A DNA stretch of 64,000 bases from Dictyostelium discoideum (Eukaryota): assembly GCA_000004695.1 (NCBI GenBank), contig CM000152.2, positions 2,560,001-2,624,000 of the forward strand. The letters are read 5' to 3'. Position numbers and translations under genes: made by a program. The notes below the pieces were generated by a model. It had not been told where the DNA came from and did no database searches. It was given only the letters and a program-made list of their open reading frames with translations. Below, piece after piece: positions 1 to 63,344 of the stretch. Within the stretch, counting starts at the first letter, position 1. Each line of letters starts with the position of its first letter.

Positions 1-880
1 AAAGTTATAATTATCAGTATTGTATGTATCAAAAAAAAAAAAAAAAAAAAAGGGTTGAATTTATTTATTTATTTGTTTTTTTTTTCTATTCAATTTTTTG
101 TAAAAAACTTTTTTTAAAAGGGGTAGTGGGGGTTTATATAAATAATTTTTGTAATATATCTACTTTTATAAATATAGTACTAAACTATACATATTTGTGC
201 ATGTACTATGTGAATTTAATTGAAGTTATTTATAAACAATTTTTTAAAATAAAAAATAATCATCATGGAATAAAACAATTTAAAATAGATTAAGTATTCC
301 GACTTTTTTTTTTGATTGTGAATAAAAAGTAACATTAAATAAAAAACTTTGTAGAATGTATTTTATAATTAAAATAAAATGATACACATCAAAGAAATTA
401 TTTTAAAAAAAAAACACAATAATTTAATTTAGCACCCACATATATATACATAAATATAAAACATATTAATAATTTTTGTAATTTTTTGGATTATTCTTTT
501 TTTTTTTTAAAAAATAATGTAAAATGGAAATTGATCATCATAATTTTTTTTTTATTTAAAGAAACACCACCTCACTTTTGTATATATTTTTTTTTTATTA
601 ATTTCTTTTTTCAACTAATTGTATATAAACAAAATTGTGATAATTATTAATTTTTTATTTTATTTTATTTTTATTTTTAAAAAATAAAATAAAATTAAAA
701 AAAACAAAAACATAATTAAATAAAATAAAAAAAAAAAAATTATATATTTTATTTTTCATTTAAGTTTTAATAGAATAAAATAAAGATATAATAAGAAAAA
801 AAAAAAAAAAAAAAAATAATTAAATAAAATTATAGATATAATTAAAAAAAAAAAAAAATAAAAAAATAAAAAATAAAAAA

Positions 881-3234
881 ATGAAAATCAAAAGTTTAAT
901 AATTTTAATAATAACAATATTATTTTTAAAAAAAATAAATTCAGCATTTGTTTATCCGAGACCTTCCGAATTAACACCAATTAAATTAAAACCAATTATT
1001 TCAATTGGTAATTTTTGTCCTTACAAAAATGTAAGTCTTTTTTTTTTTTTTTTGTTTTTTAGAAAAAAAGTTTAAAAAATAATTTAGAATTTAATATTAA
1101 CATCTAAATTAAAATAAATAAAAAAGTATGGTGTTCAATTAACAATAAATAAAATCAATTATAATTTGGTTATTGATACAGTAAATTCTGTAACAACATT
1201 ATCATCAAAAGAATGTAGATATGGATGTTTACGTTTACCTAGATTATATATTCCAAGTTCAAAAACGAAAGTTGATAAAGAAATTTCAAAAGGATATTAT
1301 AAAGATTCAACAGTATGGCAAGGTTATGTTGTTGGTGAAAAAATTATTATTAATCATAACTTAACAACAAAATCTGAAATTAAAATGATTGCATTAACAT
1401 CACAATCGAAACCACCTGCAAATCCAAGTAAGTTTTTTTTTTTTTTTTTTTTTTTTTTATTTAACATGTGATAATCTAATTTAATTAATTATTTTTTTTT
1501 AAAAAAAAAGTTTGTGAATCATCAAGTATGTTAGCACATGGTATAATTGGTGTTGGTCAATCAAAAGAAATTAATTCATTTGTTAGACAATTTTCAGGTA
1601 TGAATAATATACCACCAATATTTTCATTAACAATGTGTCCAGAGAATCCAAGAATTTGGTTTGGTGGATATGATCCAAGTGTTTTAGAAGAACCAAAAAA
1701 GTTTGCATTTACAAGATCAGAGGGTGACTCATATGGATTTACAATTAATAATGTTTATATTGGACCAAATACATTATATCAAGTTACAGATTTTGTATGG
1801 AAATCTGAATTGGATACAAGTACACCATTCATTCATTTACCATCATCAGTTTTTCATCAAGCAATTCAAGTTTTATCAAGAGAGAGACATTTTAATAAAT
1901 ATTTTAATACTCGTTTCTTTACTGAAAAGAAATGTGTACTAAATCCACTTGCAAACTTTACAATTGATCAAATTAATGGGTTATTACCAAAATTTAGAAT
2001 TGTTTTTAAATCAAATTTGCCAAACTCTGAAATCTCTTTAGATGCAGTACCATCCTATTTGGTAATTGAAGGTGATAAAGCATGCCCTGGTATAGTTGAG
2101 TCATTGGATTATAATTCAAGATTTGGTGTTTCATTATTTCAACAATATATGGTTTTATTTGATCAAGTCAATGGTTTAGTTGCGATGGGTAGAGCAAGTT
2201 GTAAACCAAATCGTTGGGTACCTGGTAGTAATTGGGGTGAATGTAAAAGAGATTTAAATTCAACTGATATTAGAGAAGGTGGTATAAATTGTGAAATGCA
2301 AACTCGTCCATTAAAATGTATAAATGGTAGAAATAAACGTGTTGCTGATTCTCTTTGTCATGGTATTTTTAAACCACTCTACAAAAGACCATGTTATAAA
2401 GAAGAAGAATCATCTGAACATCATAATGACAATTCTTCATCAAGTCATCATCCATCAATATTTGTTGATAATGACGATGATGATCAAAATGAAAATTCAC
2501 CTCCACCAGCAACTAAAAATGGTAAGAAAATAACACCAAAACCAGTTAGAACTAAAAAACCAACAACAGATTGTAAAGTTGATATTGGTACTTGGAAAGT
2601 AATGGGAAATTGGTCTGATTGTGATCAAATTTGTGGTTCAGGTTTACAAACTAGAGAGGTACTTTGTATTTCGATCAATGGTGAGTTATTAGATCAAGAA
2701 AGATGTAATTCTCATACTAAACCACCAAGTGAACGTGTTTGTGCAGTTGCAAAATGTCAAGCTGAGTATCATTGGGATACTTCAGATTGGTCAGGTTGTT
2801 CGACTCAATGTGGTGAAGGTACACAAAGTCGTTTTTCAACATGTATAGATTCATCAGTTTGGAGAAATGTTGATTCATTAAATTGTAAAGGTCCAATGCC
2901 AATTCTTGAAAGAGAATGTCTTGGTCAACCATTATGTAGTAAATTCAAATGGGATTGGGAACCTTGTCAACCAAGCTGTCCAGAAATGGCTTATGTCTAT
3001 TGTTATAACTCTTCATCAGCTACAAAAGTTGATAATTCATTTTGTAAACAAATTCCAAATCTATTCATTCCAATAGATTGTAAATGTTATAAAACAAAAA
3101 AACATTTACAAACAACTTCAACTTCTGAATTCTCTGACAGTACTTCAAATTCTTCAAAATTAATATTACCTTTAATTTCATTAAATATTATTTATTCAAT
3201 TTTAATTTTATTTATAACAATAAAATTAATTTAA
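881..3234 (+). CDS. Secreted pepsin-fold (A1 aspartic peptidase-like) protein with degenerate catalytic motifs, about 4 C-terminal thrombospondin type-1 repeats and a hydrophobic GPI-like tail. Exons 881-1030, 1127-1427, 1511-3234.
   Basis: Signal peptide MKIKSLIILIITILFLKKINSA. Exon 2 reads YGVQLTINKINYNLVIDTVNS, matching the pepsin Y.G.I.IG...F.V.FDTGSS block. Exon 3 carries GIIGVGQS and the C-terminal lobe LVAMGRASC. Several TSP1 repeats (e.g. WKVMGNWSDCDQICGSGLQTREVLC, WDTSDWSGCSTQCGEGTQSRFSTC) follow. Donors gtaagt at 1031 and 1428; acceptors ..aaaaag at 1126 and 1510; frames join without stops. Confidence 0.7.
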
Positions 3235-3366
3235 AAAAAAAAAAAAAAGTAATAAAAAAAAAGGTAATAATATAAGATAATTAAATTATTTAAATAAAAT
3301 TTTATTATTTCAAAAAAGAAAGAAAAAAAAAAAAAATTTGATTTTTCTACTAATATAACAAATTTA

Positions 3367-5304
3367 TTAAATATTTGTATCAGATTTCCTAATATTTTGT
3401 AAAAAGTTATTTTTTGGAGTTGATAAAATCGGTTTTTGAGAATTATAATTATCATCTGAATCATCTTCACTTTCTGAATTATCACTTTCATTTTCTTTAT
3501 TTTTAGTTGATGTTGTTGTGGTTGTAGTTGTTGTTGTTGTATTTGTACTATTATTATTATTATTATTATTATTAGTTAAAATGGAAGACGGTATATTTGG
3601 TGAACTTGAAACATTATTTATAATTGGTGAAGAAGTTGGTCTATCATCATTACTTATTGACCTAGAATGACCACTACTACTTGATGTATTTACATTAGCA
3701 CTACTACTACTACCACTAAGATCAACTCTATTTCTATTGAAAATCTTTGTATTATATTCATCATCTGTAGAGATAACTGATTGATCATAAACAGATTTTG
3801 GAATTTTTAAGTAAGAAATGTTACCACTGATGACACGAGCAGTGAAATCTGGTACAAAGTGATCAGATTTCAAAGCACCAACACCAAGAGTAGAGAATGG
3901 ACCACCTTCACTAATAAAAGCTTCACTACCTGAACGAATTTCAACTTTACCTTGGAGGATGATTGTAAAGAAATCAGTGGCGACACCTCTGGTATAAATG
4001 AATTTATCACCTGTGGCTGGTCTATCGACATCCAAAACAATGGCACCTTTAGTGGAGAGCATTTTGATGAAAACATTTTCAGAGATGAACTTGGAGGAGA
4101 ATTCATCGATTGAACCACTAAGATAAGAGTAAATGGCTTTGACTTGTTGTGAGGATAATTGGGCGAGTGCAGTTTTTGGACCATGGAAAGAGCCGATTGT
4201 TCTATAGTCAAAGGTTGAATGATGTTGATTCTTCTTTCTAACCTCATGATACATATCATTCTCATCGAGAATTTCATCTTGAAGAATCTCTTCAATGATA
4301 TCTTCCAAACAAATGATGCCAAGGTTCTCATAGAATGGATCCCCTTCACCTTCGTTATTAACTTTATGTACGATTGCCATATGTGAACGACCAGTTTTAA
4401 ACTCTGTTAACATTTGATCCAATGATGTATCATTCCATGTCTTTACCAATTGTCTTTTGTATAGATTGAGAATGGTTCTAAGTGGTACTTTATCAGCTGG
4501 ATTCAATAATGCTAAATCTTTGACGTATAGACAACCTACAATATTGGATTTGTTTCCTTCAAATACTGGAATTCTACTATGTCCACTCTCTAAAATCAAT
4601 GTAATGGTATTATAGTCTAAAAGACTTTCAATATCAACACTAAATACTCTCTCCATTGGTGTCATAATTAATGAAACTTTTTTATGTGCAAAATCTAAAA
4701 CACCTGTTAACATTGTAACATCACTACGAGATACACCACTTTCATTTGCATGGGCTGAATGAATATCTAATAATTTTTTTAACTTTTTTAAAAAGAAAGA
4801 AAGAGAGAGAAAAAAAAAAAAAAATATTTATTAATAAAATATTAATAAAAAAAATAAATAATAAAAAAACTTACTTGATTTCTTGAATAAATTGTACCCA
4901 TTTCATTACCTAAAATCCAATCTAATGTTAAACTGATTGGATAAGCAAATGGGAAAAAGAGAAAGATGAAAACATAAACGATATAGATTGTATGAGCACC
5001 AACTGCTAAACCATGTCTTGAACATGCGGCTTGCGGTATAATTTCACCAGCAATAACGATAATTGTAGTTGATAAAATAAAACCAACGAAACCACTTGTC
5101 AAATCGGCAAGGAAAATTGATAAAAGTGCATTTACACCTACATTACCCAATAAAAGGGTACAAAGTAGTAAATTACCTTTTTGTCTAACCGGATATATAA
5201 TTTTTGCATATTTACTTTCTTTCGCCGTCCCACTCGCTATAATAATCTATATATATATGTTCAAATAAAAATTTTTTTTTTTTTTTTAATTGGAATTAGA
5301 TTGG

Positions 5305-12022: not shown

Positions 12023-15000
12023 ATGACAAAAACCAAAAAAACCACACCAAAACCAACAACACCAACAGCAACAAAGGTAGCAGATACATTAAAGAGTAAA
12101 AAAGGAGTACCATCCACAGTTAAAACTTCATCAATTGCAAATCATAAACAAGTTGGTGTATTAAATAATAAAGAAAGAAAACAACAATTAAAGAAATTAA
12201 AATTACAATCAAATTTATCAAATCAATCAACCAATGTTTATAATAATTCCAATAGTAATTTATCACATGAAAATATTTTAAAATCAGTTATTGATTCTTA
12301 TATTTTACCATTAACAACATCAACATCAACCACCACCACCACCAAGAATAATTCAGCAACACCATCTTCATCATTTTTAGATATTAAAACTTATTTACCA
12401 AATGTAATTGTATTATTACATCAAGGTAAATGTTTAAAGAAATGTTTAGATTCAAATAATAAATCAGCTGAAAGTATTAAATTACGTGAAAGATGGATGG
12501 AACTTTTAGGATTCTTATTAAAACCAAATAATAATAATCTTTGGGTTGGTGTTCATTTACTTTGTGAAACTGTACGTGTTTGTGATTATGAAATTATGAT
12601 TAACAAATTAGAACATTGGATAACAATTTTAACAACATTAATTGAAAATCAAAAAAAAGTTTTAACTTTAAAGAACCAACAACAAAATCAACAAAGTCAA
12701 CAACAAATACCAAATACAATTTCATTTAAAGAATATGGATCAATTATAATATTATTATCATTATTAGTTGAAAAAGCAACAAAATGGAATGACTTAAAGA
12801 GAACAATTACAAATAATACAGTTATGTCACCAATTGTATCATTGATTTTATTATCATTAGATCAACAATATGGTTATCCAGATGAATGTAAAATAGATTC
12901 ATTAGTTGCAATCACATCATTGATTCAATCGGCTACTACTGCTTTAAAACCATACCTTTTCAAAATTGAACAATTGGCTTATCCATTACTCTACAGTTCA
13001 AATAAATCAATTCAAGAGAGTACTTCAACATTAATTGCCAATCTTTCACAATGTGTTGGTATTAATACAACCGATTTATATTGGGATATTTCTGTTCAAA
13101 AGATTTTAGTTGAAATGAATACAATTGTTGATAAAGTTTTTAATATATTTGAAGATCAAGATCAAACTAATAGTAATAATAAATCAAATGTAGTTGATAC
13201 TACTACTAATAATAATACTACAACTACATCAACTTCATCAACTGGTAGAACTATTAATTTACCAAATAATAGTAAATTATTAAATGTTGGTGATGATCAA
13301 GTTATTAGTATGTTAAAAAATTTATCATCTGTTAAATTCCCTGATACTCCAAAAGATGTTCATGCACAGACTTCATTTTATATTAAAGCTTTATTTGGAC
13401 TTTCAAATTGTCTCTTACGTATTTTATCAACAAGTTCATCAACACCTTCACCTGTACCAATTGATGAAATTATTAAATTAATTTGTAGAATTTTAAATCC
13501 AAATTTAAATCATCTTGCTTTTTCAAATTTAAATTTAGTATGTATCTTTTTTTTAAAAAAAAAAAAAAAAAATATAAATATATATAAAATATTAATATAA
13601 TTACTTTTTTATTATTTTTTTTATTATTTTATTAAATAGTCATTTTCAATTTCAGAAATGATATTTTTAATTCAACAATTTCATCAACAAGCATTTCAAT
13701 TATTATCAGGTATTTTAAAAATTTTTAGAAAATCATTATTAGTTCATAGTAAAACCATTTCATCATTATTATTAAGACCATTGAAATCATTAAATTATTC
13801 ATTAATGAGTCCAACAATTCATTCACAAATTTATAAAACCATTACAGATGCAGTTGAATCATTTGGTGCATCAAGTTCTGATTCATTGGCAATCCAAGTT
13901 TTACCAATATTATTAAAAGATATTTTACCATATATTCCAGAAGGTGGTAATAGCAACAATTCAATGTCAACAACTCAAAATACAACTTTATTAAATTCTT
14001 CAAAATTAACAATTTCTCAAACTATTAATAATGTTGATCCAACTTTAAATGATTTTGATTCTTTATCAATTAAAGAAGATGCTTTATCAGCTTTATCAAG
14101 TATACTTTTACATTGTGGTTCATATCTTCAACAACAACAACAAAATAATAATAATAATAATAGTAATTCATTTGGTACAGACAGTAATAATAATAACGGT
14201 CCAAAAGTTAAACAAATTTGTAGATTAGAAATTGATCAATTATTAGTATCATTATTATTAGAATGTCAATCATTATCAAGTGTTAAAAAGAATTCAACCA
14301 CTTATTTAAATAGTAGTTATAATTGTTGGAGATATAGATCAAAATTATATGAATGTTTAATTCATTGTGTTTTAAAACCAGTTTCAAATATACCACCAGT
14401 TTTACCATACTCAATTCGTATATTTACAAATGGTATGAGTAATGATCATAATCCAAATGTTAGAAGCATTTGTTGTAAAGGTGTTTCAATTTGTGAATCA
14501 ATCATTCATCCACAATGTCCATCATTAACTACTACTGCAACTACCACTACTTCAGTCACTTTTAATCAAAATCCTTCATCAGTTTATAAGAATTTATTAA
14601 ATTCAAATACAAATGCAATTATGGGTCAAGAAGATGACGATTTTGAAGAATCAAGTGATTTTGATGAAAATTTAAATGATCAAGAAGATGAAGATGAAGA
14701 TGATGATTTAGAAAATGAAATTGATGATAAAATTCAATTAGAAGATGATGATTTAGAAGTTGAAGAAGTTGAAGAAGAGGAAGAAGAAGTTGAAGAAGAA
14801 GAAGAAGTTGAAAAAGTTGAAGAAGAAGAAAAAGAAAAAACTATTGTTCATACAACTACAACTATTACTACTTCACAAAATAATAATATTGTAATGAAAA
14901 CATCTTTATTCAATACCTCAACACTTCAAAAACAAGCTACTGTTGCTCCAAAAGTTTCTAAAATCGAACCAAAGAAACCATTAATCGCCGATAATAATGA

Positions 15001-15055
15001 TGTTTCAATTGATGATGGTGATGATGATTTAGATTTACCAGATATTGAAGATTAA
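12023..15055 (+). CDS. Large nuclear-type protein with a basic N-terminus, helical (HEAT/ARM-like) body and a strongly acidic E/D-rich C-terminal tail, possibly RIX1/PELP1-like. Exons 12023-13537 and 13640-15055.
   Basis: Two same-frame ORFs joined by donor TTA|GTATGT at 13538 and acceptor aaatag| at 13639 (102-nt intron). The acidic tail reads DDDFEESSDFDENLNDQEDEDEDDD..EVEEVEEEEEE. The family assignment is a guess. Confidence 0.55.
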
Positions 15056-18910: not shown

Positions 18911-19144
18911 ATGTACAATTCATTTCAAGAAAGGCAACCAAATACTGACAATATAATCAGTGCAAAATTGAAATTGAATGAATTCTTTTTAACTTATTTA
19001 TCCCAGAGTGAAACTACACAATATATTCATGATTTACTCAATGGTATAAGTCAATCATCTGGTCAAAGTTCAAAGTCAACTCCTTCTTCACCTTCAACTT
19101 CACCATATAAACAACCTTATCCTTTCTTAAATAGTAATAATAAC

Positions 19145-19191
<47 letters not shown>

Positions 19192-19345
19192 TAATAATAG
19201 TGCATCAATAACAATACCAATCCAATTTTCATTGGGTGAATCAACCAATGATAATTCAAATGAAAATAATAGCTCATTGAAATCTGATATAAAAATGGAT
19301 GAAGACGAATGTAATAATAATGATAATACTATTAATAATAATGAA

Positions 19346-19421
<76 letters not shown>

Positions 19422-21892
19422 TCTATACAAAAGATGAATCACATGAATCATCATCATCAGAGGTTGTAACTTCACAAATAGCAACCTCAACATCTTCACC
19501 TCAAAAAGAAATAAAAGAACAAAATGATAAAGAGAAAGAAAAAGGCAAAGAGATTGAAAATGAAGATGAAAATGAAAATGAAAATAAAAATGAAAATAAA
19601 AATGAAAATAAAAATGAAAATGAGAAAGAGAAAGAAAAAGAGGAAAAAGAGTTGGGATTAAAAAAAGAAAAAGAGGAAAAAGAAAAACAAGAGAAGGAGG
19701 AGGAAAAACAAGAGACTACTACCACCACCACCACTTCAACCACTATATCATCAGATGATAAAACTGTAAATAACATATCACCAAATAAAAACAACAATAA
19801 TAATAGTAAAAAATTAAAAAGCGAAGATGGATGTGTTATCATTCAGTGTGATGATAACAATAATATTGAAACAACATCATCATCATCATCAACAAACAAT
19901 ATAGAATTACCAAAGATACCACAATTTTATTTCCCAAAAAGTAGAGCAATAAATGATAAATTAGAAACTAGTATATTTACAATTAAAAATAGATTTCAAA
20001 CTTTTAAATCAATTGATATGAATCAACAATCATGTACTAATATCCCCGCAAAATATATCTCCTCATTTGATGAATTTGAAGTTTTAATTAAAGATTTACA
20101 TTCTTTCCCAAGAATTTTAAATAGACTTTTATTCATTTACACTTTAAAACAATTAAAATTAATTGATGCAATTTATATACCTCAAGATGCATTCATAGAG
20201 TAAGTGGTTGTTTAAAAATTCAATTGAAAATATGAGAATAATAAAAAATTGTATCAAAAAAGGTGTTTTGGATTTGTGTGGGAGTGACACTTTTTTTAAT
20301 TTTTTTATTTTTTTTTACTATCCAAAACACCTTTTTTTTTTTTGGGAGTCGCACAAAAATAAAAGTAAAAAAAAAAAAGAAAAGAAGCAACAATACTAGC
20401 GTCGCATAAAAAAAAAGAGGCGACAAATACTAGCGTCGCATAAAATTACTTTTCACCACTTTAATGTTGAAATTATTACACCCGACCACCAAATTTTTTA
20501 TTTTTCACAAATAAAAAATAATTTCTAATACTTTTTTTTTTTTTTTTTTTTTTAATAATTAGGTTTTGGAAAACATATATTTATGGTAAAGATGCAGAAG
20601 ATTTACTATTTAATATTTTAAAGAAATCTGAAGATTCAAACTTTTTATTTTATGAAGATTTTTTCTTATTTTCAAAAAGTAATTATTAAATTTTTTATTA
20701 TTATTATTTTTTATAAACCAATTATTAATACTATTATTATTGTTTTAAAAATTAAAGCATTGATCGATTTTCATCCAGGTTTAGAATTTTTATCAAATAC
20801 ACCAGAGTTTCAAGATAGATATCAAGAAACAATTATTATTAGAATATTTTATGGAACTTGTAGAAATAGAGGTAGAATTACCGCAAAGGATCTAAAAACA
20901 AATAACTTTATTAGATCATTAAGTTTATTAGATGCTGAACCTGATATAAATAAGGTAAATTTTTCTTTTCAAATTTTAATTTAGAAATTAATATCATATT
21001 AATTATATATTTTTTTTTTTTTTTTTTTTTAAAAATTAATTTTAGCATTTAGAATATTTTTCATATGAACATTTTTATGTTATTTATTGTAAATTTTGGG
21101 AATTGGATATGGATCATGATCTCTTCATTGATAGTAATGATTTAGCAAAATATGGAAGTTGTAGTTTAACTCCATTAATCATTGAAAGAATTATTGCAAA
21201 TTCAATATTTACCAAACCTTTATTTGGTATTAGAAATAAAATTTCTTATCAAGATTTTGTTTGTAAGTTATTTATTTAATTATTATTATTATCATTATTA
21301 TTTTAAATTAATTAATTTTATTTTATTTTATTTTTTATTTTTATTTATTTTTTTTTACTATTTAGGGTTTATATTATCAGAAGAAGATAAAACAAGTGAA
21401 ACTAGTATTGAATTTTGGTTTAGTTGTTGTGATTTAGATTGTGATGGATTTTTAAGTTTATATGAAATGGATACATTTTATAAGGAACAAAAGCAGAGAT
21501 TAGATTATTTGAATTTAGATCCCCCAGTATTTAAGGATCTTTTATGTCAAATCTTGGATATGATTAAACCAGAGGCAATTGAAAAGATTACATTGTTGGA
21601 TTTAAAGAGTTCAAAAATGGCTGGTTATTTATTCAATGTATTATTTAATATCAATAAATTCTTACAACAAGAATCAAAAGAATCAATCACTTGTAATCAA
21701 CCAATGAGCGATTGGAATAGATTTGCTTTACAAGAATATGAAAGAGCTTTGGCCGAAGAATCACTCTCTTATCAAGACGATGAAGACGATCAAAATGATG
21801 ACCAAGATGATGACGACCAAGATGATGACGATCAAGATGGTCATCACCATAATCAATATCATCATCAAGATAATAGAATGTTAATAGGTTAA
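18911..21892 (+). CDS. Protein phosphatase 2A regulatory subunit B'' (PR72/PR130-like, EF-hand). Exons 18911-20199, 20563-20678, 20758-20964, 21046-21262, 21366-21892.
   Basis: Exons 3-5 align almost residue-for-residue with PR72: HPGLEFLSNTPEFQDRYQETIIIRIFY; YFSYEHFYVIYCKFWELDMDHDLFID; SYQDFV|WFILSEEDKTSETSIEFWFSCCDLDCDGFLSLYEMDTFYKEQ; ITLLDLK. Splice junctions restore codons exactly (e.g. T|GG=Trp). The N-terminus has long poly-N and ENK/EKE repeats. The acidic tail is DDQDDDDQ. Confidence 0.85.
20258..20345 (-). other. Conserved ~85-nt element, copy 1 (in intron 1 of the PP2A B'' gene): a 12-bp inverted repeat flanking an A-rich loop, with a DUSE-like core CTCCCACACAAATCCAAAACACCTT
   Basis: The minus strand reads AAAAAAGGTGTTTTGG..A-rich ~45 nt..GTGTCACTCCCACACAAATCCAAAACACCTTTTTT. 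Compare copy 2 at 39085-39165. Confidence 0.5.
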
Positions 21893-26559: not shown

Positions 26560-27032
26560 TTAAAAGATTGAAATTGATTTATTCTTTTTACCAATTCTCT
26601 TACGAGCAACATTTGGATTCTTATTACCATAACCAATTACAATATCATCAGAAGGACCTTTATGACCAAAACCTAAATCGAGATCATTCATATTGATTTC
26701 TTTTGAAACTTTCTTTTTATATAATTGACCAGTTACTCTTAATTTATGTAAATATTGATCTTCAGTAAGAATGATATCGTTACTCTTTTTACCACCTTTT
26801 GGTTTTGGAATTGAATAAATTGTACCTCTCAAATTGAATTGTTTAGCTGAACCAACACTAACTCTTTGATTACCATTTCTATCAACATATGTTGTTGCTT
26901 TATATAATGATTTATTACCACAATGTCCACAAAATATTTTATCCATATCAGTTGTAATACTTTTTTTTTAATTTATAAATAAATAAATAAAATAAAAGTA
27001 ATTAGTATATACATATATTTAAATAATTATTT

Positions 27033-27063
<31 letters not shown>

Positions 27064-28427
27064 CTATGGTATACATACTTTAAACATGCAACACATTTTA
27101 AAACGAATTGTTTAACTTGTTTAATAACGACACCATCAGCACTAATTAAATGAAGACCCATTTGAAGGATAACATTTTGCATAGAGAAATCTCTAGTGAT
27201 ACAACCAACATCATAATGTACTTTCTCTTGAACATAAGTTGAAGATAATTTATTTTTAATATTATCAGGTGTAATCCATTCACCTTCGTCCTCTACTTTA
27301 ATAACTCTATTCTTTTTTCTTTCTTCAGCTTCTTCAGCTTGTTTAATCTTTAATTGACGTAAAACTTCTTTTGGATCAACTAAATTTTCTTTTGAAACTT
27401 CTTCTTCAATCTTTTCTAAATTTACCATTAATTTATTATTTCTTTTCTTTTTACCTGTTATATTATTATTATTATTGTCATTATTATTATTAGTGTTATT
27501 ATTATTATTATTTACAGATTCTTTTTCTTCTTCAACTTTTTCAACTTTTTCAACTTTTTCAACTTGTTCAACTTTTTCAACTTTTTCTTCCTCTTTTTCT
27601 TCATGTTTATGATCACAACAACTATCAGTAGTTGTTGACTCTATATTTTTATTATCAGTTGATATTGGTTTTGATTTTTTATTTTTATTTTTATTTTTCT
27701 TTTTCTTTGGTTTATCTGCAGTTGTTGTTGTTGTTGCTGTAGAAGTAGTAGTTGTAGTAGTTGTAGTTGATTCTGTAGTTGTATTTGATTCTGAGGCCGA
27801 TTCTGATTTATTATCTTTTTTATTATTATTGTTGTTATTGTTATTATTATTATTATTTTTCTTATGAACTGGTTTCTTTGTTACAACTTGAAGTTTTTCA
27901 GGTTCAGTTTTAATATGATCAATACCATTAACTTGAGCTTCAAAAGTATAAGTTAAAGCTATTAATTTCATATCGGTAGCAGATAAAGATGGATAATCAC
28001 CAGTTTTCTTTGAAAATTCAGAGACTGCAACCATTGATTCATGGGTTGGTTGTCTAGTTTTAATTTCAAATGGAAAAGATGTTAAGAAAGTACTTGTTTT
28101 TTTATCTTTAACTTCTTCTAATACTTCTGGAATTGTCCATAATTCTTTACCTAATGTCTCTAATCTTGTACCTGAAATTAATGCATTTGTATCAATAATT
28201 AAATAACTTGCTGTAGTTTTTTCATTTGTCATTGCTAATGTTTCCATTGATTTAACTAATTCATCACTTTCAGCAGTAACGCTTCTTTCGCCAAATGGAT
28301 TATCATTTGAATTTTCATTTAATTCATTTAATTCTTTTAATTGTTCTTCTGTTAATTCTTCATATTCAACCTCTTCTTCCTCTTCTTGTTGTTTATCAAC
28401 AATATTATTTTCAATTGGTTCACTCAT
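26560..28427 (-). CDS. nob1: NOB1 homolog: PIN-domain endonuclease with C-terminal zinc ribbon, for 18S pre-rRNA 3' end maturation. Exons 27079-28427 and 26560-26959.
   Basis: PIN domain LIIDTNALISG. The zinc ribbon is split by an intron: ..LKCVACL|N ITTDMDKIFCGHCGNKSLYK (compare human CHGCFKTTSDMSRVFCSHCGNKTL). YSIPKPKGGKKSNDIILTEDQ matches YSLPTPKGGKYAINPHLTEDQ. Donor AA|GTATGT, acceptor aaaaag|. Confidence 0.85.
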
Positions 28428-28777: not shown

Positions 28778-31702
28778 TTATTCTCTTTTTTGTTTTGGAG
28801 TATTATTATTATTATTATTATTATTATGATTTTGTTCTTGTAATTGTTCAACATGTAAAACTATATCTTTAACTTTGCTTATGAAATGAACTAAAATTTG
28901 ACTACTATAATCTATGAAAGGACCAGCCAAACCTAATTTGAATAAAACGAAACCAACACCACCCAATAGGATTGTTAATAACAATAATAATGGTGAAGAG
29001 ATGATTGAGATGAATTCATTGAAACCTAAAACGCATAAGAGAATGATCATATAACCTGGTACACCACCACCAGATGTTAAACGATTTTGTTCAGAGAGGG
29101 CTTGCATATAATCACTCTTTATTGTTAAACGGAAATTTTCACAAGCTAAACAACAATCTTTATATGGAATGATAATTTTTGAACTATTGACCATGGTATT
29201 TTCTTCGTGTTCATCATTATCAAGACGTTTAAAGAAAGAAACATTTGAATCTTCCTCATCCAAACGAAGATAGGAGAAAAGATCGATTAACTTTTCAGCA
29301 TTTTGACGTGCATCTTGGAAAATTGAAGCGATATCATCAGTTTTTGTCCATTTTCTTGGAAGATTACGATTGTCCATATTGAATTTCTCTTCGAAACGTT
29401 TACGCATACGCATTTGTAAGAATTCAGCACGTTCAGTGATTTTATTCTTTAAACCATCAGCTAATTGCTCTCTAAATTTATTGATTAATTCATTGACTTT
29501 TTGTTCGTCCAATTGGAAATCTACTAAACGATCTCTAAATTCCTTTTCATTGGAAGAGAGTGCATCATCATAGTAAGTTTTAATCTTTTGCCACATATTA
29601 TTTGGTGCTTGTTCTGTGATTTTGGTTAATAAAGGTGTTAATTCTTGTTGGAAGGTTTTATCTCTCATTAATTTTGATAAACGTACTAATTGATTCTCTT
29701 TTAATATTGAAAGTTCTTTATCGATCTTTATCTTTAATTGTTCTAAATCATTTTCAAAACTCCAATCACTACCTGGTACAATAGATTGATTTGCAACAAT
29801 TTCAAAATATTCAATTGATTTCTTTTTAATACCATTTGACCATGTTGAAAATTGTGGTATAATACCAACTGATGCTGCTGTTAATAAAACTGAACTACCA
29901 TCACGTTTTTTATTATTATTATTACCACTACCACTACTACTACCTGTATTTGAATCAGTAAATTCTTTAATTAATGAATTATAAAATACTAAAGTATTTT
30001 CATTTAATCTTTCCATTTGTTTATCGAAAAGATATTTCAATTCAGTGAGAATACGGTCAGTTAATACTTGACGTTTCTTTTGAACTGTTTCTAAATGATA
30101 ACGTTGTGCAGGTTCATCATAAACTGATAAAGATTGGTCGAGAATACGTTTTGATTTCTCACCAAATTGTTCTTGAATACGACCACGTTCAATATGTTCT
30201 TTGATTGGTTTAATGTCACGTGTAAATTGAGTCATTGATTGTTCGACAAATTCATCACAACGATAAAGAGCCAACATCTCCTTTTGTGATGGTAAATCTA
30301 AATCACGATTACTCTTGATGGTTTCCCAAACTTGATAACTGAATTGATAGAATCCATCGGCTGGAATATCATCATTTCTATACTTTCTCTTTGGAATAAA
30401 ACTATCGGCACCACTATCACTGAATCTTTGTTTCAATTGTTCAACTTGACCTAAAAATGCTGTTGGTGAATAAATCTTATGTGGTAATGTTGTAAATTCA
30501 AAATCAAAGAAATCACTCTCTCTTGTACCCACAAATTCCTCTGGTTTTTGTAAATCTGTCCATAATTTTGTAATATCTTCCATTAATGTTGCTTTTAATC
30601 TTTCTAATGGTGTAACACCATCATGATCTCTAATTAAGAAAAATATTAAAATTTTATGATTTCTTTTAAAAAAAAAAATAAAAAAAAAAAATATTAATAA
30701 ATTTGAATTACAATTTATATTTATGTATATTAATATATATATTATTTACCTTTTCTTTTGAAATAATTGTAAATTTAATTCAAAAACAGTTTTTAATAAT
30801 GAAATATTTGCAGCATTATAACGACCAATATCATGAGCCCACATATTGATAATAAGTACTGAAGAGAGTGCTAATGAAAAGAGTGAAGTTTTTCTTTCAA
30901 ATGCTTTTTCATCTTCACCTCTTTCACGACCATCAGTACCTTCAACATCTAAAATTAAAAATGTTTCATTCTTATTGTTGGTAGTACTTGCAACACCCAT
31001 CCAAACACCTTGTGTAGTTTGTTTACGACCAGTTGATGCGTCCATAACTGCAAATCTTGTATTGAATAATAAATTCAATAATGTACTCTTACCACTACTT
31101 TGTGGTCCTAAAATTGAAATAACTGAATAATCAAATCCTTTTGTTAAAAAATCATCTCTATTTGATAATGTTGATAAAAATGTTGTTCTACCATTTTTAT
31201 TATCTTCTTTTCTATTTATTTTTTTTTAATTAAAAATTAAAAAAATTTAAAAAAAAAAAAAATTGGCAATGAAAAAAAAAAAAAAAAAAAAAAATTAACA
31301 GATTGGTGTTAGAAAATAATTTAAGCTATCTATTTATCAAGATTTAAATAATAAAAATACTTACACAATGTCACCTTTATGATCGATAAATTGTACAATA
31401 TCTTGATATTCGTGTTCTTGTTCTTGTGTTTGTTGTTTTTGTTGTTGTGGTGTTTCTTGTAGTGTTGGGGTTGGTCTAATTGGTTCGACTGGTTTTGTTT
31501 CCTCTAAAACAACAAATTCATCCTCTTGTTGTTGAGTATCTTGGTCGTCTATTTGTTCTTGTTGTTCTTGTTGTTGTTGTTCTTGTTGTTCTTGTACTTG
31601 TTGTTCTTCATCTTCTTGTTTAATATTTTCATTGCTCAATCTTGGTTGATTGGTTTGTTGTTCTTCTTCAACTGTTTGATTTGTAGTTATTTCTTCGCTC
31701 AT
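28778..31702 (-). CDS. Sey1/RHD3 (root hair defective 3) family dynamin-like GTPase, an ER membrane fusion protein. Exons 31365-31702, 30750-31211, 28778-30662.
   Basis: Exon 1 has a Q/E-rich N-terminus ending [10 protein letters not shown]. Exon 2 carries P-loop [15 protein letters not shown] and [46 protein letters not shown]. Exon 3 begins [21 protein letters not shown] (the G4 region) and ends with two TM helices. Donors GTAAGT and GTAAAT. Confidence 0.85.
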
Positions 31703-42496: not shown

Positions 42497-43108
42497 TGGG
42501 ACATCAAATTTCTAAAGAAGATAATGGGTAATTATTATTAATATTAATAAATCAAAATATGCCAAACCTAATAATTTTTAATAATAATTTTTTTTTTTTT
42601 TTTTATAAATAATTATTAATCCACCCCAATTTTTAATTAATTTTTCAAAAATATCAATTTACTTACACCCCACACATTTACCCCACTTTTTATTTTTTTA
42701 TTTTTATATATATATATATATTTTTTTTTAAAAAAAAAAATCAATTTATATTTTACTTTTTTTTTTATATTATTTTTTATTTTGGATTTAGAGAACAAAG
42801 CAATAGTAATAATTTAAAGAAAGAACGTAGATATACAACCAACAGTAGTAATCTACATTTCCTTTATCAACAAGAAGAAGGAATTGGAATTAATTATAAA
42901 ACAGGATCAGCAAATAACAGTTTGAGCAATAGTACTAATAGTAATAATAATAATTATAATAATACAAATAGTAGTAATAATAATAATAATAGTGGAAATA
43001 ACAAAAAAATAACAGAAAGTACAAGTTTAGAAGATTTTAAACAATTTTCAACCACACTTTCAATTTCAAGTACAACACCACCTGACACACCAATAATTTC
43101 TTATAATA

Positions 43109-43147
<39 letters not shown>

Positions 43148-43956
43148 CAAATAAAGCTGTACATTTTACAAGAACAAGATCTAGATCATTAAATATAACA
43201 AATACAAGTAGAAATTTAAAGGTTACATCATCTCCAATCATAGATAGTCAGGTATGCGCACCAAATAACAGTTATAATAGTTCAATTCAATCTTTAAATT
43301 CATTATCATCTACAAATAGTTTATCAATCAATACAAATACAAATACATCATCATCATTATCATTATCTTCAAATTCTTCAAATAATAGTTTATCAACTCT
43401 AACTAATACAACTACTACAACAACAACTACTACAACCACTAATACAACACAACAACAACAACCTATAAAAGGTAGAAAATCAAAATCAAGTAACGCATTA
43501 TTTAAATCATTAAGATCATCTTTAACAGGTTCTTCAAGTAGTAATAGTAATAGTGGTAAAAAGAGATCATCTTCAATATCCTCTAGTACAAATAGTTTAG
43601 ATATAAATAGCGCCAATAATAATAATAATAATAATAATAGTTTAAAAGTATCATCAAAGAAATCATCAAAAGGGGGTTCACCAAATTCAAGTACAGAATC
43701 ACTTCAATCTTTATCAACATCAGCATCAGCATCATCATTAACATCCACACCACCATTACCACCAAAAAGTAATGCTTTTTCAAAATCTCAAAATTCAAGT
43801 GCATCATCATTAAATAAACAAGTTATATCATCATTACCACCATTAGCACCAACATCAACATTAACAACAACAACAACAAATTTAGAAGTTTCAAAAGAAT
43901 CTTTAAAGCCATCATCAACACCAATTGATAATAATTCTGTAGCAGATTCATCCTAC

Positions 43957-44039
<83 letters not shown>

Positions 44040-44971
44040 TAATAATAATTTACTTGATAGATTAACAGATCAATTACATAGAGATCCTTTCTTTTATAAT
44101 ACAAATACAGCATACCAAGAAGAGAATATAATAGTTGAAGAGGTCGTAGTAAAAGAGGAAGAGAAATCATTACCTCCAAAGAAATTACCACCACCTTTAC
44201 CACCTAAAAACTTTAAACAAACAACAACCACCACCGCAACAACAACAACAACAACAACCACAACAATGAATCCACCATCACCAATAATTCAAAATGTAAA
44301 TAGAAATAATAGTAGTAGTAATAATAGTAGTAGACATGAATTATTGAGAAAATCATCAGGTATATTACCACCACAAACTGAACCAACCTATCCAAGTGAA
44401 ACAAGTTCAAAGAGATCATCAGTTGAGATTAAATATTTAGAAGAGAATCATAAATATCAAATATTTGATAGATTGGGTAGTGGAACATTTAGTGATGTTT
44501 ATTTATGTATTAATAAAGAGAATGGTAAACAATATGCAATGAAAATCATTGATAAATCATTAGTGACAATGATTGCACAACATACTGATATGAAAGTTGA
44601 GACAGAGGTAAACATACTGAAACAATCATTTCATCCTCACGTAATTCAAATCATTGATCATTTTGAAAGCGAACTTTATTATTACATTGTCACTGAATTA
44701 CTACAAGGTGGTGAACTCTTATATCAATTAGAAAAGAATCATCCCTCAACCAATGAAAACGTTTCAAACTACACTGAAGAACATGCTAGAAAAATCATTA
44801 AACAAGTCATTCAAGCTGTTGGATTCTTACATTCAAATAAAATTGTACATCGTGATCTTAAACCTGAAAATATCCTATTCCGAGATAAATCATTAGGTTC
44901 AATTTTAAAAATTATTGATTTTGGTTTAGCTTCATATGTTGATCATGATTGTAATTGTAATAATAATAATG

Positions 44972-45011
<40 letters not shown>

Positions 45012-45546
45012 AAATGGTGAAGTAATACAACCATCATCACCACCACCAACAAAATTAATTGATGTTTGTGGTACACCAGAATTTCAAGCACCAGAAATGG
45101 TAAAGAGATTAGGATATTCATATCCAGTTGATATTTGGTCAACTGGTATCATTTTATATATTTTATTATGTGGTCATCCACCATTTCAAGGAAAGAATAA
45201 TATGATAGTTATGAGTTTAATTATAAAGGGTGAATTAAATTTCGATTCAAGTGTTGGTTGGGATAATGTTTCAGAGTCTGCAAAGGATTTAATTAGAAAA
45301 ATGTTAAATCCTGATCCAGAGAAACGTTTAACAGCTCAACAAGTATTATTACACGAATGGATTACTACCTCTAGTGATGTTAATGGTTCCCCTCAATTGG
45401 GTGCTCCTTTATTCTATAAACAACTTAGAAGATATAATTCTCAACGTCACTTTGAAAAAATTGGTGATACTCTTTTAAAATCTCAAAGATTTATTTATAT
45501 GTCACCAGAAAAAGATTATTTAAAAAGAAGATCAATACAATTATAA
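42497..45546 (+). CDS. CAMK-like Ser/Thr protein kinase with an N-myristoylation signal and a long S/N/T-rich N-terminal region. Exons 42497-42528 and 42792-45546.
   Basis: A 32-nt first exon encodes [11 protein letters not shown] (Gly2, Ser6) and ends with donor GG|GTAATT. Acceptor atttag| at 42791 is in frame. Kinase motifs: [42 protein letters not shown] poly-N/D insertion lies between DFG and APE. Confidence 0.8.
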
Positions 45547-49747: not shown

Positions 49748-53314
<3,567 letters not shown>

Positions 53315-53813: not shown

Positions 53814-56800
53814 ATGGGATCCCAAAAGATTTTCTTGATTTTGTTTACAATTTTATTGTGTTTGAGAACTATAAAATCTATTTCAGTTGAAGAATGTAAT
53901 TATTTTTTTTTTTAATATTTAAAAAAAAAAAGGAGTTATAAATATTAATATTATGTTTAGCAAATTGTATTAGTTTTTTAGCCAACCAACTTGGAATAAA
54001 TTTTTTTACCTCAATAAATTCTTCAAGCCAAATTCAATATTGTTATTATACATCTTATATTACATGTGACTCTAATGAGAGTATAACTGAATTAAATCTA
54101 TCTCAAAATTCATCTTCTAATATAATAGGTTCAGACCTATTTTTATGTTTTCCAAATTTAAATTCATTGTTTGTATTTATTTTTTATTTTTAATTTTATT
54201 TTTATTTTTTATTTTTATTTTTATTTTTTATTTTTATTTTTTTTTTATTTTTGCTTTTTTTTATTTTTTTTTTTTATCTTTTATCAATTTATTAATTTTG
54301 TGTTTTCAAATAGATATCTTAAAAAAGTAATACTCAATAGTGATATTTTATATACATTACCTTCAACTGTAAAGAAATTACATTTGGAAAGATGCACTGG
54401 TTTAACCAATGTAACTCAAAAATTACCGCCATATGATTATTTGTATGTATTGTTGAAAAAATAAAAAAAAAAAAAAGAAAAAGTGTTTTTTTTTACTAAT
54501 TATTTAAATATTAGAGAGATAATTACCTTTTCATCAGATACTTTCATATTTTATATGTCATGGATTCAAAATATTAAAGAGTTTTATTTTTATAATGTTG
54601 AATTTCCATATACTTTAAATACAACTTTTGTTACAGATTTTGAAAATATTGAAAATTATACCAGACTAGATTACATGGGCTTCTCAACAAATGAAATACC
54701 TGATCTTACTGGTTTTTCATGTGGTGTGTAAGTAAACAAATTATTTAATAAATAAAAATAATAATAGTTTGTTATTGATAAAAATAATAATAATAATAAA
54801 AATAAAAATATAGTGATATGCTTTTAGGTTTTGCTTTTAAAAGTTCATTTGAAAAATTATTAACATTTAGTGGTGTTAAAGATATGATGATTTGGTACTA
54901 TACAAGACCAATAGATATACCAACACAATTATTACAATTAAGTGGAATGCAAAATTTGTAAGTTGTAACTATATTTTCTAAAATTTAACAATAATAATTT
55001 AAAATTTTACTGATTCTTTTTAATGATAAAGGCAAATTAATATAAATTTTAAAGTACCATCTTATCAATATGATTTCTCAAATTTAACATCATTATCAAT
55101 GCTTCAACTTATGGATAAATCAACCAATACAAATAACTTGGGAAGAAATGGTTTACCAATTTCAAAATTACCACCAAATTTAAAAGAATTTTATTATGCA
55201 GGAATTTTAAAGAAATCACCATCAATGGAAATTTTTAAAGATGTTAAAATTGTTGATTTCTCATTATGTGAAATAAATGATACATTAAAAGATGTTTTCT
55301 TACCAACAACTTATTCAACAAATAATTTGTAACTATTTTCATTCATTAAATTATTTTTTACTTTTATTTTTTTTTAAACAGTTACTAATAGTTGTTTTTA
55401 TTTTTATATATATTATATTAATAGATATTTTGAAAACAATAAATTATATGGTTTAATTCCTCAATCATACTGTAATGTAATTACAGATTTTAGCGATAAT
55501 ACTTTAACTGGTGAAATTCCAAAGTAATTATTTTCTTTTTTATAAAAAATATTAGAATTAATTTATATATAGAAAAAAAAAAAAAAAAAAACTAACAATT
55601 TTTTAAAATAATTATAGTTGTTTCACGTGTTATTTTAATGATACTGATTCTTTAGTGAAAAATAAATTTGCAAATAATAAATTCACAAATTATGCGACCC
55701 AAGGTCCTTGTAGTATGTATTTTTAAAATATAATAATTTTTAAAATTTTAATTTTATATATATACTAACTATAATTTAATTTTTAGCAACAATGAAACCA
55801 AATTTATTAGTTAATGCTACAACTTTAATATTATATGGTGAATCTTTAGGTTTTAATGGTAGACTTATAAAAACAAATGCAACAGGTTCAACAACTTTTA
55901 CAATGATACAACCAAGTAGTTATTTTACATTAAATTTAAGAACAACAAATATATTTGCAAAAGGTGCAAGATCATTAATACTCACTTGGACAGTTGGTAG
56001 CGAAATTAGAAAATTCACATTACCAATTGTTAAACAAGCACCTGTACCTGCAAATATTACTTACAGTGGTATTGCATCGAATCAAGTCGAAATAAATGGT
56101 GAATTCTTTACATACAACATTACAGATGTTTCGGTTTTAGTAAGTGGTAATGATTGTCTTGTAACTTATACAACATTCAACCAAATCAAATGTACATTAA
56201 CAAAAGGTTTAAATGAAAGTATTGTATTACCAGTTGATTTTATTTTTGTTGACATTATTGTAGGTGGAAACAAAACAAGTGTTTATGTTAGATTACAAGA
56301 AACATCATATATAAACAATAAAAAGTGTAACCCTGAACTATGTACTTCCAATACATATTGTAATTTAAATGATGGAATTTGCTATCCACATTTAGATTGT
56401 ATTTCAGATTGTACAATAAACAATGCAGTTTGTAATCATGTTAGTGGGTTGTGTGATTGTAGGAATAATTGTAGTAATGCAGGTTTATGCAATGGTGTAG
56501 ATGGTACTTGTTCGTGTAATTCTGGTAGATTATTCAACGATTGCAGTGGTATTCAATGTACAGGTACACCAATTTGTTCAAATCATGGTACTTGTGATAC
56601 CTCAAACGGAAAATGTAAATGTGAATCAATTATATGGGTTGGCAATGCATGTCAAGATACTCAACATTATGTAAATGCAATTACACCATCAAATGAAAAT
56701 GGTGGTAAAGTTTTATTATTTGGTTGGTTTGGTTCAACTCATTCAAATGCATCAGTAATAATTGGCTCACAAGAATGTAATATAACTTCAATAAATCAAA

Positions 56801-62500: not shown

Positions 62501-62792
62501 TAATAATTGATTTTTATTCCCTCAAATAACTGACTTTTTTTTTTTATTTTTCATTTCCAAATCAGATTTTTCAATTCTTTTAAATTCAAATGTAAAAGAT
62601 AATGAAGAAACATGTGAAGATGAAACTAAAGATACAAAAATATCAACCACAACAATTATTGCGATCTGTGTATCAGTGGGGGGTGCTGCAATTATAGGTG
62701 CTGCTGGTTATCTTTTGTATAGAAAAAAGTTTGTTGAAGTTTTACCATCCTCAAAGTCAAATTCAAAATTAAAAAAACTAAATGTGAAATAA
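58545..62792 (+). CDS. Type I membrane receptor-like protein, paralog B (tandem duplicate of 53814-58034). Ten exons: 58545-58626, 58696-58909, 58981-59109, 59219-59437, 59599-59745, 59835-60131, 60216-60314, 60408-60502, 60571-62487, 62566-62792.
   Basis: Same architecture and exon phases as paralog A. Exon 1 MKFSKIFSIFILILLCIGTLKS. Exons 6-10 are ~96-97% identical to paralog A, while exons 1-5 are only ~50-60% identical. Intron 4 is an (ATT)n repeat. Confidence 0.75.
59467..59590. repeat. (ATT)n microsatellite forming intron 4 of receptor paralog B
   Basis: tta x ~40 between donor GT at 59438 and the acceptor at 59598. The raw ORF reads poly-L. Confidence 0.8.
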
Positions 62793-63250: not shown

Positions 63251-63273
63251 CAAGAGGTCAAATTTTTAAAAAG

Positions 63274-63344
63274 TGCCGCGACCTGGAATCGAACCAGGGT
63301 CAACAGAGCCACAATCTGATGTACTACCACTATACTATCACGGC
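63274..63344 (-). tRNA. tRNA-His (anticodon GUG)
   Basis: The minus strand reads GCCGTGATAGTATAGTGGTAGTACATCAGATTGTGGCTCTGTTGACCCTGGTTCGATTCCAGGTCGCGGCA, with anticodon loop TTGTGGC, B box GGTTCGATTCC and A box TAGTATAGTGG. It is close to the canonical eukaryotic tRNA-His sequence. Confidence 0.85.

Follow-up and report, generated by a model that had tools for sequence, protein, structure and literature searches.

A BACE-like pepsin-fold domain with degenerate active-site motifs, joined to thrombospondin type-1 repeats, in Dictyostelium discoideum

Does the gene at positions 881-3234 of the stretch studied here encode a protease, or a protein that has kept the pepsin fold for another use? The stretch, called the window below, is the whole of 64,000 nucleotides of Dictyostelium discoideum DNA (GenBank assembly GCA_000004695.1, contig CM000152.2, positions 2,560,001 to 2,624,000 of the forward strand). 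A first-pass annotation, made from the letters alone, had described the product as a pepsin-fold protein with both catalytic motifs degenerate, fused to thrombospondin type-1 repeats (TSRs). In our study, the protein was found to contain a BACE-like, pepsin-fold domain in which both catalytic aspartates were kept and the glycines of both D-T/S-G motifs were replaced. This domain was followed by two canonical and two divergent TSR modules and by a hydrophobic tail. We take the protein, with some reservation, to be a binding or adhesion protein.

The gene was found to contain three exons on the + strand, which is the strand of all the features of the gene given below. Exon 1 (881-1030) encodes residues 1-50, which comprise a signal-peptide-like N-terminus and the first part of the pepsin-like domain with Cys46; exon 2 (1127-1427) encodes residues 51-150 and the first base of codon 151, covering most of the pepsin-like N-lobe; and exon 3 (1511-3234), which contains the open reading frame (ORF) 1528-3234, encodes residues 151-724 and the stop codon. 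Intron 1 (1031-1126) was 96 nucleotides long and of phase 0, intron 2 (1428-1510) was 83 nucleotides long and of phase 1, and both contained GTAAGT...AG boundaries. The spliced coding sequence of 2175 nucleotides was in frame and gave a protein of 724 residues, colinear and gapless at both exon junctions with the full-length orthologues of D. purpureum and Polysphondylium violaceum. In the alignment, the intron 1 junction PYKN|YGVQ was gapless in both orthologues and the intron 2 junction ANP-I-CESS was colinear with the orthologues. The three-exon gene is real, and its coordinates and two introns had been given correctly in the first-pass annotation.

The closest orthologue was that of D. purpureum (P0002; XP_003286592 / F0ZGR2), which a cluster look-up showed to be annotated as a 'Peptidase A1 domain-containing protein'. 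It was 82% identical over exon 3 and 77% identical over the pepsin-like domain. Further orthologues were found in P. violaceum (P0004, full-length), Acytostelium subglobosum (P0003, an N-truncated model) and Synstelium polycarpum (P0001, a truncated model). The gene is conserved across Dictyostelia, with orthologues in the four other dictyostelids named here. All the 32 cysteines of the protein were alignable with the orthologues and, together with the 77% domain identity to D. purpureum, they indicate purifying selection on the whole protein. The gene is an ordinary conserved one that carries an automatic A1-like annotation in relatives, and our results do not overturn the current understanding.

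The pepsin-fold, BACE-like domain is located at 971-2208 (residues ~31-383), is split by the two introns and has no evident propeptide. In the Pfam scan of the spliced protein, PF00026 had no match at E<=1 and TAXi_N had no match; exon 2 scanned alone had no Pfam match, and a single-sequence phmmer search of the PDB returned no A1 peptidase, only thrombospondin repeats and noise. Because of these results, profiles and structure were needed for the A1 homology. TAXi_C, which models the C-lobe and belongs to the same clan, matched residues 225-372 (E 5.9e-14) and was the sole Pfam peptidase-clan match. When the exon-3 part was used as the query of an exhaustive HMMER search, 153 proteins were obtained at E<=1e-3; all of the 96 homologues scanned were PF00026-positive and 91 of the 96 were also TAXi_C-positive. 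The five-orthologue profile matched BACE1 (E 1.1e-8), BACE2 (6e-8) and also plasmepsin V in the PDB, and by hhalign it aligned with the 96 homologues at 100% probability (E 5.4e-48) over 339 columns covering both lobes, the exon 2 part lying along their N-lobe. The structure model was made for residues 17-395 of the D. purpureum orthologue and not for the window protein, the two being 77% identical with the same motif states. This AlphaFold 2 (AF2) model, with a 150-sequence alignment as input, had a predicted local distance difference test score (pLDDT) of 88.8 and a predicted template-modelling score (pTM) of 0.88. When it was searched against the PDB by Foldseek, BACE1 came first (E 5.5e-22, template-modelling score 0.73, ~377 columns). 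The domain is, according to this model, a bilobal pepsin fold over both lobes, and its A1 (pepsin-like) homology is solid, by profiles and structure. The A1 alignment proposed earlier for the N-terminal part was thus borne out by TAXi_C, the orthologue profile and hhalign, and not by PF00026 itself. Two of the distant homologues (P0007 and P0010) contained intact motifs, Ala/Gly-rich, bacterial-looking N-termini and Cys-rich pre-domains; judging from these sequences, this A1 peptidase clade may include bacterial members.

The active-site motifs were read from an alignment of the window protein, its four orthologues and ~146 distant homologues, which was cross-checked by hhalign. The first motif was D67-T-V-N-S (1175-1189, residues 67-71), in which Asp32 and Thr33 (pepsin numbering) were kept, Gly34 was substituted with Val and Ser35 was substituted with Asn. 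The first-pass annotation had located this motif rightly, as DTVNS occupies the D-T/S-G-S column of ~117 homologues, in which the D, G and S positions were conserved in 116/117, 114/117 and 114/117, respectively. The motif was DTVNS in the window protein, DSQNS in D. purpureum and DTRNI in P. violaceum; among these three orthologues covering it (window included), Gly34 was V, Q and R, respectively, and Ser35 was Asn in each. The LTLD of A. subglobosum that came to lie under the first motif was a misalignment of the N-truncated model; another alignment placed LTLD ~36 residues before Cys152, and it was not counted for Asp32.

The second motif was L-D252-T-S-T-P (1810-1827, residues 251-256), in which Asp215, Thr216 and Thr218 were kept and Gly217 was substituted with Ser. 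In the homologues, the D column was conserved in 146/146 and the G column in 143/146. The D252-T-S-T of the motif is located in 'SELDTSTPFIHLPSS', which HMMER pairs with 'KSIVDSGTTNLRLPKKVF' of BACE1 and 'VDSGTTLLRLPQKVF' of BACE2, and LDTSTP aligns to IVDSGTT of BACE1/2 and to the corresponding stretch of all 146 homologues. Across the orthologues (window included) the motif was DTS, DTS, DTT, DSR and DAS, with S, S, T, R and S, respectively, in the place of Gly217, and Thr218 (T255) was invariant. It had been thought earlier that H-L-P-S-S (1834-1848) stands for the second motif and that the Asp is missing. That was wrong: H-L-P-S-S represents the conserved turn 'xLP' that follows the second motif and aligns with 'RLPKK' of BACE1 and 'LPxxV/F' of the homologues, and the true motif LDTSTP lies six residues upstream with Asp252 present. 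Both the catalytic Asp were kept in every orthologue that covers them, and the Gly of the two D-T/S-G motifs was absent in the window protein and in all the orthologues covering them; G34, S35 and G217 were 97-98% conserved in ~145 active-looking homologues. None of the six frames of 700-3400 contains a D[TS]G, so the motifs cannot be rescued by another choice of exons. A gene model with DTG restored was rejected on this ground, and the description of the motifs as degenerate stands. In the P. violaceum model a 21-residue gap was found opposite residues 231-251 of the window protein, directly before the second motif; this gap is probably a mis-called intron of the annotation and not a real beta-strand deletion.

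The flap was found at K105-G-Y-Y108-K-D-S-T-V-W114-Q-G (1289-1324), where Y108 is the equivalent of Tyr75 and W114 is the equivalent of the BACE-type Trp80. This stretch aligns with 'YTQGKWEGELG' of BACE1, and its columns in the homologues contained Tyr in 111/125 (13 Phe) and Trp in 86%. The flap Tyr was kept in the window protein and P. violaceum and substituted with Phe in D. purpureum. The H-G-I-I-G-V-G segment (1537-1557) is the N-lobe hydrophobic-hydrophobic-Gly partner of the psi loop (pepsin ~119-124); the columns of G161 and G164 were 98-99% conserved in the homologues, and both glycines were kept in all orthologues. GIIGVG had been listed among the flap landmarks in the first-pass annotation, and this assignment was mistaken, since the actual flap is GYYKDSTVWQG (residues 106-116). 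The hydrophobic-hydrophobic-Gly partners were present in both lobes, as I162-I163-G164 (N-lobe) and R354-F355-G356 (C-lobe), and the Gly columns of both were 98-99% conserved in the homologues and kept in all orthologues. Of the two residues that hydrogen-bond to the catalytic Asp in A1 enzymes, Ser35 and Thr218, only Thr218 was kept. According to Kay et al. (2011), the hallmarks of the A1 family are DT/SG, hydrophobic-hydrophobic-Gly and Tyr75 (PMC3116508).

About 50 columns were at least 80% conserved in the homologues, and nearly all of them were kept by the dictyostelid proteins. The conserved Cys were all kept (46, 80, 84, 152, 193, 292, 342 and 381), as were the flap Tyr and Trp, the W200-x-G-G-x-D block, 'LP', 'SYL' and the FD368 block. 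The positions that clearly departed from this were G34, S35, G217, G197 and one Ala two turns after the first motif. The family-conserved G197 was Pro in all four orthologues covering the position, and Thr216 was substituted with Ala in Synstelium. As read from the alignment, the degeneration in the catalytic centre is focused on the psi-loop residues. The Gly replacements that differ between genera, the Phe flap of D. purpureum and the Ala216 of Synstelium point to drift at positions that are fixed in active enzymes. The pattern looks like relaxed constraint on catalysis inside a strongly constrained scaffold.

The C-terminal half begins with a divergent TSR-like module A (2215-2394, residues 386-445), which directly adjoins the peptidase domain. 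It matched TSP1_ADAMTS of Pfam with E 0.0095 and 16.6 bits, under the 23.8-bit cutoff; its equivalents in the orthologues had E 4e-9 to 2e-4. Module A is followed by a low-complexity linker (2395-2568, residues 446-503), acidic and Ser/His-rich at first and then basic and Pro/Lys/Thr-rich, which was poorly conserved and varied in length among the orthologues. The next two modules, TSR B (2569-2757, residues 504-566) and TSR C (2758-2937, residues 567-626), are canonical ADAMTS-type thrombospondin type-1 repeats. TSR B matched PF19030 (E 6.1e-14, 52.5 bits) and PF00090 (E 3.4e-5, 24.4 bits), TSR C matched PF19030 (E 8.9e-8, 32.7 bits), and both aligned to the TSRs of thrombospondin-1 in the PDB. 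They are followed by the Cys-rich module D (2938-3090, residues 627-677), a degenerate TSR-like segment of the pattern WDWEPC...C...C...CxC, which was kept in all orthologues and had no Pfam match. With a local TSR hidden Markov model (HMM) built from modules B and C, and 500 composition-matched shuffles as the control, module A scored 17.4 bits (shuffle maximum 8.8) and module D scored 11.6 bits (shuffle maximum 8.0). A count of about four repeats had been given earlier. It is fair if read as two canonical and two divergent TSRs: B and C pass the Pfam thresholds and A and D beat the 500 shuffles, but A is marginal and D has no match in Pfam.

The WxxWxxC pattern that had been ascribed to the repeats was found in neither canonical module. 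TSR B reads WKVMGNWSDC...CDQICGSG and TSR C reads WDTSDWSGC...CSTQCGEG, so that the Trp spacing is W-x5-W and W-x4-W, respectively, and not 2, with WxxC kept in each. The WxxWxxC Trp ladder and the CxxS/TCxxG O-fucosylation site are the consensus of animal/apicomplexan TSRs (PMC6939170). TSR B and TSR C contained neither the ladder nor CxxS/TCxxG, and no Ser/Thr stands immediately before the second Cys. If the dictyostelid TSRs are glycosylated, this would not be via the canonical POFUT2 motif.

The protein ends with a Ser/Thr-rich stalk (residues 678-697) and a hydrophobic tail (residues 698-724), encoded together by 3091-3231 and followed by the stop codon at 3232-3234. The tail reaches the last residue, has a mean Kyte-Doolittle value of 2.34 over the final 20 residues and contains no cytoplasmic residues. 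It is preceded by a ...SDSTSNSS... stretch. Equivalent tails were present in all four orthologues, and the hydrophobic tail resembling that of glycosylphosphatidylinositol (GPI)-anchored proteins, as noted in the first pass, is thus present, terminal and conserved. The Kyte-Doolittle profile contained only two hydrophobic segments, residues 1-25 and 698-724; the signal-peptide-like segment proper covers residues 1-21 (881-943). This layout is probably that of a cleavable signal peptide and a GPI-attachment signal, the anchoring being predicted from hydropathy.

The joining of a pepsin-fold domain to TSRs had been called an unusual architecture. It proved to be less unusual, as the same A1 + TSR arrangement was found in nine distant homologues with intact motifs. 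In these nine, a TSR lies within 0-70 residues after the peptidase domain, which is the position of module A; six of them cover both lobes and contain intact DTG/DSG twice, and the three N-truncated ones keep an intact second motif. By Pfam, TSP1_ADAMTS was found in 6/96 homologues. The intact-motif TSR-bearing relatives come from metagenome contigs of uncultured organisms, in which this family still exists. From these nine homologues it follows that the peptidase-TSR fusion is older than the glycine loss, and the comparison of these sequences makes the dictyostelid protein a degenerate offshoot of an 'A1 peptidase + TSR' family that was active. A literature search on this protein or on the A1 + TSP1 architecture found nothing specific.

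On balance we favour the reading that the protein is non-catalytic and serves in binding or adhesion while tethered to the surface, akin to the inactive A1 homologues. It would pass through the secretory pathway and be a glycoprotein of the dictyostelid cell surface, probably with a GPI anchor. Its domain order would be a signal peptide, a propeptide-less BACE-like domain, a divergent TSR, the linker, two canonical TSRs, a degenerate Cys-rich module, a Ser-rich stalk and a GPI-type tail. The side chains at positions 34 and 217 would fill the docking space of the scissile peptide between the two Asp, and the loss of Ser35 (to Asn) would help to disable the cleft. The pepsin-like domain would then not hydrolyse peptides, and its cleft may act as a peptide-binding module, by analogy with the pregnancy-associated glycoproteins (PAGs), Bla g 2 and PxAP9. 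The TSRs would extend the binding to matrix, glycan or cell-surface ligands, and the whole protein may serve in adhesion or recognition at the surface. For inactive A1 homologues in which both DT/SG motifs are substituted, peptide binding was proposed (PMC3116508). As both Asp are kept, and with PAGs, Bla g 2 and PxAP9 as the precedent (PMC3116508), catalytic death is something that we infer; it is not the simple consequence of a lost residue. Of the earlier term 'catalytically dead', the degenerate motifs (both Gly and Ser35 lost) and the published precedent thus stand, and the loss of the second Asp does not. The earlier preference for binding or adhesion over proteolysis probably holds as an overall picture, but one of the two key arguments for it was mistaken.

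Several points weigh against this reading. The two Asp, the Thr next to each of them, Thr218 and (in this species) Tyr75 are kept across genera, as would be expected of an enzyme that still works. HAP of P. falciparum is active with Ala in the place of both Gly, so the loss of Gly alone is no proof of inactivity. The invariance of Asn35 in the three covering orthologues is a hint that the chemistry of the active centre has been maintained, possibly in altered form. The structure model is that of an orthologue, so the steric argument is one that we infer, and it is hydropathy from which the signal peptide and the GPI anchoring are read.

The main alternative is that the protein still cleaves, as an atypical aspartic protease tethered to the membrane. 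It would be a sheddase of the BACE-like kind, with TSRs that dock substrate or matrix as in ADAMTS and with a tolerance of non-Gly psi loops. Such an enzyme would agree with the two Asp in all covering orthologues, with the retention of Thr33/216, Thr218, Trp80 and (in the window protein and P. violaceum) Tyr75, with the invariant Asn35, with the activity of HAP in the absence of either Gly, and with the peptidase + TSR arrangement shared by the relatives with intact DTG/DSG. We nevertheless consider it unlikely, because the residues at 34 and 217, glycines in 97-98% of ~145 homologues, are here bulky and mutually different (V/Q/R; S/S/T/R/S), S35 has not been kept, the closest orthologue contains Phe in place of Tyr75 and Synstelium contains Ala in place of Thr216. 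The known A1 proteins substituted in both motifs are, moreover, inactive (PMC3116508). The sole peptidase-clan match of Pfam, TAXi_C, would be in line with a proteinaceous inhibitor of a secreted glycoside hydrolase, like the plant pepsin-fold proteins TAXI-I/IIA, EDGP and Basic 7S globulin. However, TAXi_C also matched 91/96 of the PF00026-positive homologues, mostly with intact motifs, so the match reflects the shape of the C-lobe and not an inhibitor function. TAXi_N had no match, the membrane tethering and the TSRs are without counterpart in TAXI-type inhibitors, and in structure the domain is closer to BACE and to ordinary pepsins; an inhibitor of this kind is very improbable. It is hardly credible that the gene is a pseudogene in decay or an error of gene prediction. 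The degenerate catalytic motifs would then be mutational decay, and the missing PF00026 match of the window protein would fit, but the 724-codon frame is uninterrupted with canonical splice sites, the orthologues of D. purpureum (77-82% identity) and P. violaceum are full-length and those of Acytostelium and Synstelium partial, and the structural Cys, Gly and Trp are all conserved.

Within the favoured reading of a non-catalytic binding protein, a more specific proposal can be made, tentatively. The protein may be a GPI-anchored, catalytically silenced descendant of an undescribed protist family of TSR-bearing, BACE-like aspartic proteases. As a surface receptor, it might use the intact but non-cleaving cleft to capture an extended peptide ligand, for example from prey bacteria, matrix or neighbouring cells, with the Asp pair and Asn35 kept for ligand binding. 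If this were true, that protease family would be an aspartic-protease counterpart of the ADAMTS enzymes.

Among known systems, BACE1 and BACE2 (memapsin 2/1; MEROPS A01.004/A01.041) gave the best sequence-profile and structural match. BACE is marked by the replacement of Trp39, by a flap Trp at position 80 and by disulfides of its own pattern (PMC3116508). In the window protein, the flap Trp lies downstream of Tyr75 (W114, corresponding to 'KWEGELG') and the residue at D67+7 is Thr74 and not Trp39. The blocks 'LPxxVF', 'FFxxxxC' and 'FDxxxxxxGFAxxxC' are common to both, and both have a membrane-tethered ectodomain, the tether being predicted here. Two of the three disulfide positions of BACE align in the sequence alignment, at C193/C381 and C292/C342, with the pairing putative. 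C193...C381 presumably corresponds to Cys216/420 and C292...C342 to Cys330/380 of BACE1 (full-length numbering). The third disulfide pair has no counterpart, and extra N-lobe cysteines are present here. The identity to BACE1/2 is ~19% and Gly34, Ser35 and Gly217 are replaced; there is no propeptide, with only ~45 residues from the end of the signal peptide to Asp67. The tail is GPI-like, whereas BACE contains a type I transmembrane helix and a cytoplasmic tail, and the TSRs are without counterpart in BACE. A previous BLAST-based survey detected no BACE-like protein in D. discoideum (PMC3865767).

Also comparable are the oomycete BACE-like aspartic proteases PxAP8 and PxAP9 of Phytophthora (Kay et al., 2011; PMC3116508), which we compared by their published description. 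They are likewise non-metazoan BACE-like A1 proteins with no propart and with membrane anchorage (PMC3116508). PxAP9 was predicted to be an inactive, membrane-bound BACE-like paralogue and was proposed as a possible peptide-binding surface receptor (PMC3116508), and the reading favoured here follows the same reasoning. It was judged inactive for Y75F with DT/SG kept, whereas the window protein lacks the DT/SG glycines and has retained Tyr75 (Phe in D. purpureum). The C-terminal extensions of the PxAP proteins contain no recognisable domain, whereas four TSR-like modules are present here.

The pregnancy-associated glycoproteins (A01.971) and the cockroach allergen Bla g 2 (A01.950) resemble the window protein in that the scaffold is kept, both DT/SG motifs are substituted and the proposed role is to bind peptides without cleaving them. 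The motifs of Bla g 2 are DST/DTS; a literature search to confirm them found nothing. These proteins are soluble, single-domain animal proteins of the classical pepsin type (A1A) with a propeptide, whereas the window protein is BACE-like, of protist origin, multi-domain with TSRs and predicted to be lipid-anchored. The ADAMTS and ADAMTS-like proteins share the order of an extracellular protease(-derived) domain followed by ADAMTS-type TSP1 repeats, for which PF19030 was the best TSR model here, and the occurrence of a non-catalytic derivative beside catalytic relatives. The catalytic domain of ADAMTS is, however, a zinc metalloprotease and not a pepsin fold; the disintegrin-like, Cys-rich and spacer modules are absent from the window protein, and its anchoring is GPI-like. 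Since the catalytic domains of the two are unrelated, the similarity is convergent.

Inactive pepsin-fold proteins (PAGs, Bla g 2, TAXI and PxAP9) are known, and the protein described here would be a further example. It differs from them in belonging to a genetically tractable model organism, in its predicted membrane tethering and in its coupling to adhesion-type TSP1 modules. The ligand of a dead pepsin cleft would be directly testable in Dictyostelium by genetics. BACE-like scaffolds are present in Amoebozoa, where the BLAST survey saw none (PMC3865767), and the protease + TSR architecture arose also with an aspartic protease, parallel to the ADAMTS metalloproteases.

The window is extremely AT-rich, with a G+C content of 14-29% across 2-kb windows, and contains short GTAAGT...AG introns and coding tracts of poly-Asn/Thr. 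No paralogue of the gene was found by tblastn elsewhere in the 64-kb window. The convergent neighbour at 3367-4713 (-) is a CNNM-like fragment with a CBS domain, a CNNM2-type CNBH domain and a poly-Asn/Thr/Ser tail; the stop codons of this fragment and of the gene studied are ~130 nucleotides apart, so that the shared 3' intergenic region is very short. Exon-sized ORFs with recognisable domains were found at 28778-30583 (-) (Sey1/RHD3 GTPase), 27027-28427 (-) (PIN_6 ribonuclease) and 42922-45546 (+) (protein kinase), and the long ORFs 12023-13600, 13658-15055, 18911-20203 and 49748-53314 had no Pfam match at E<=1e-5. The sole tRNA gene of the window was that of tRNA-His (GTG) at 63273-63344 (-). 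Two ORFs in tandem, at 55792-57726 (+) and 60576-62510 (+), both encode 644 residues and contain ComC supersandwich, TIG and ComC second beta-sandwich domains; the pair has the look of a gene for a ComC-like surface protein that was recently duplicated in tandem.

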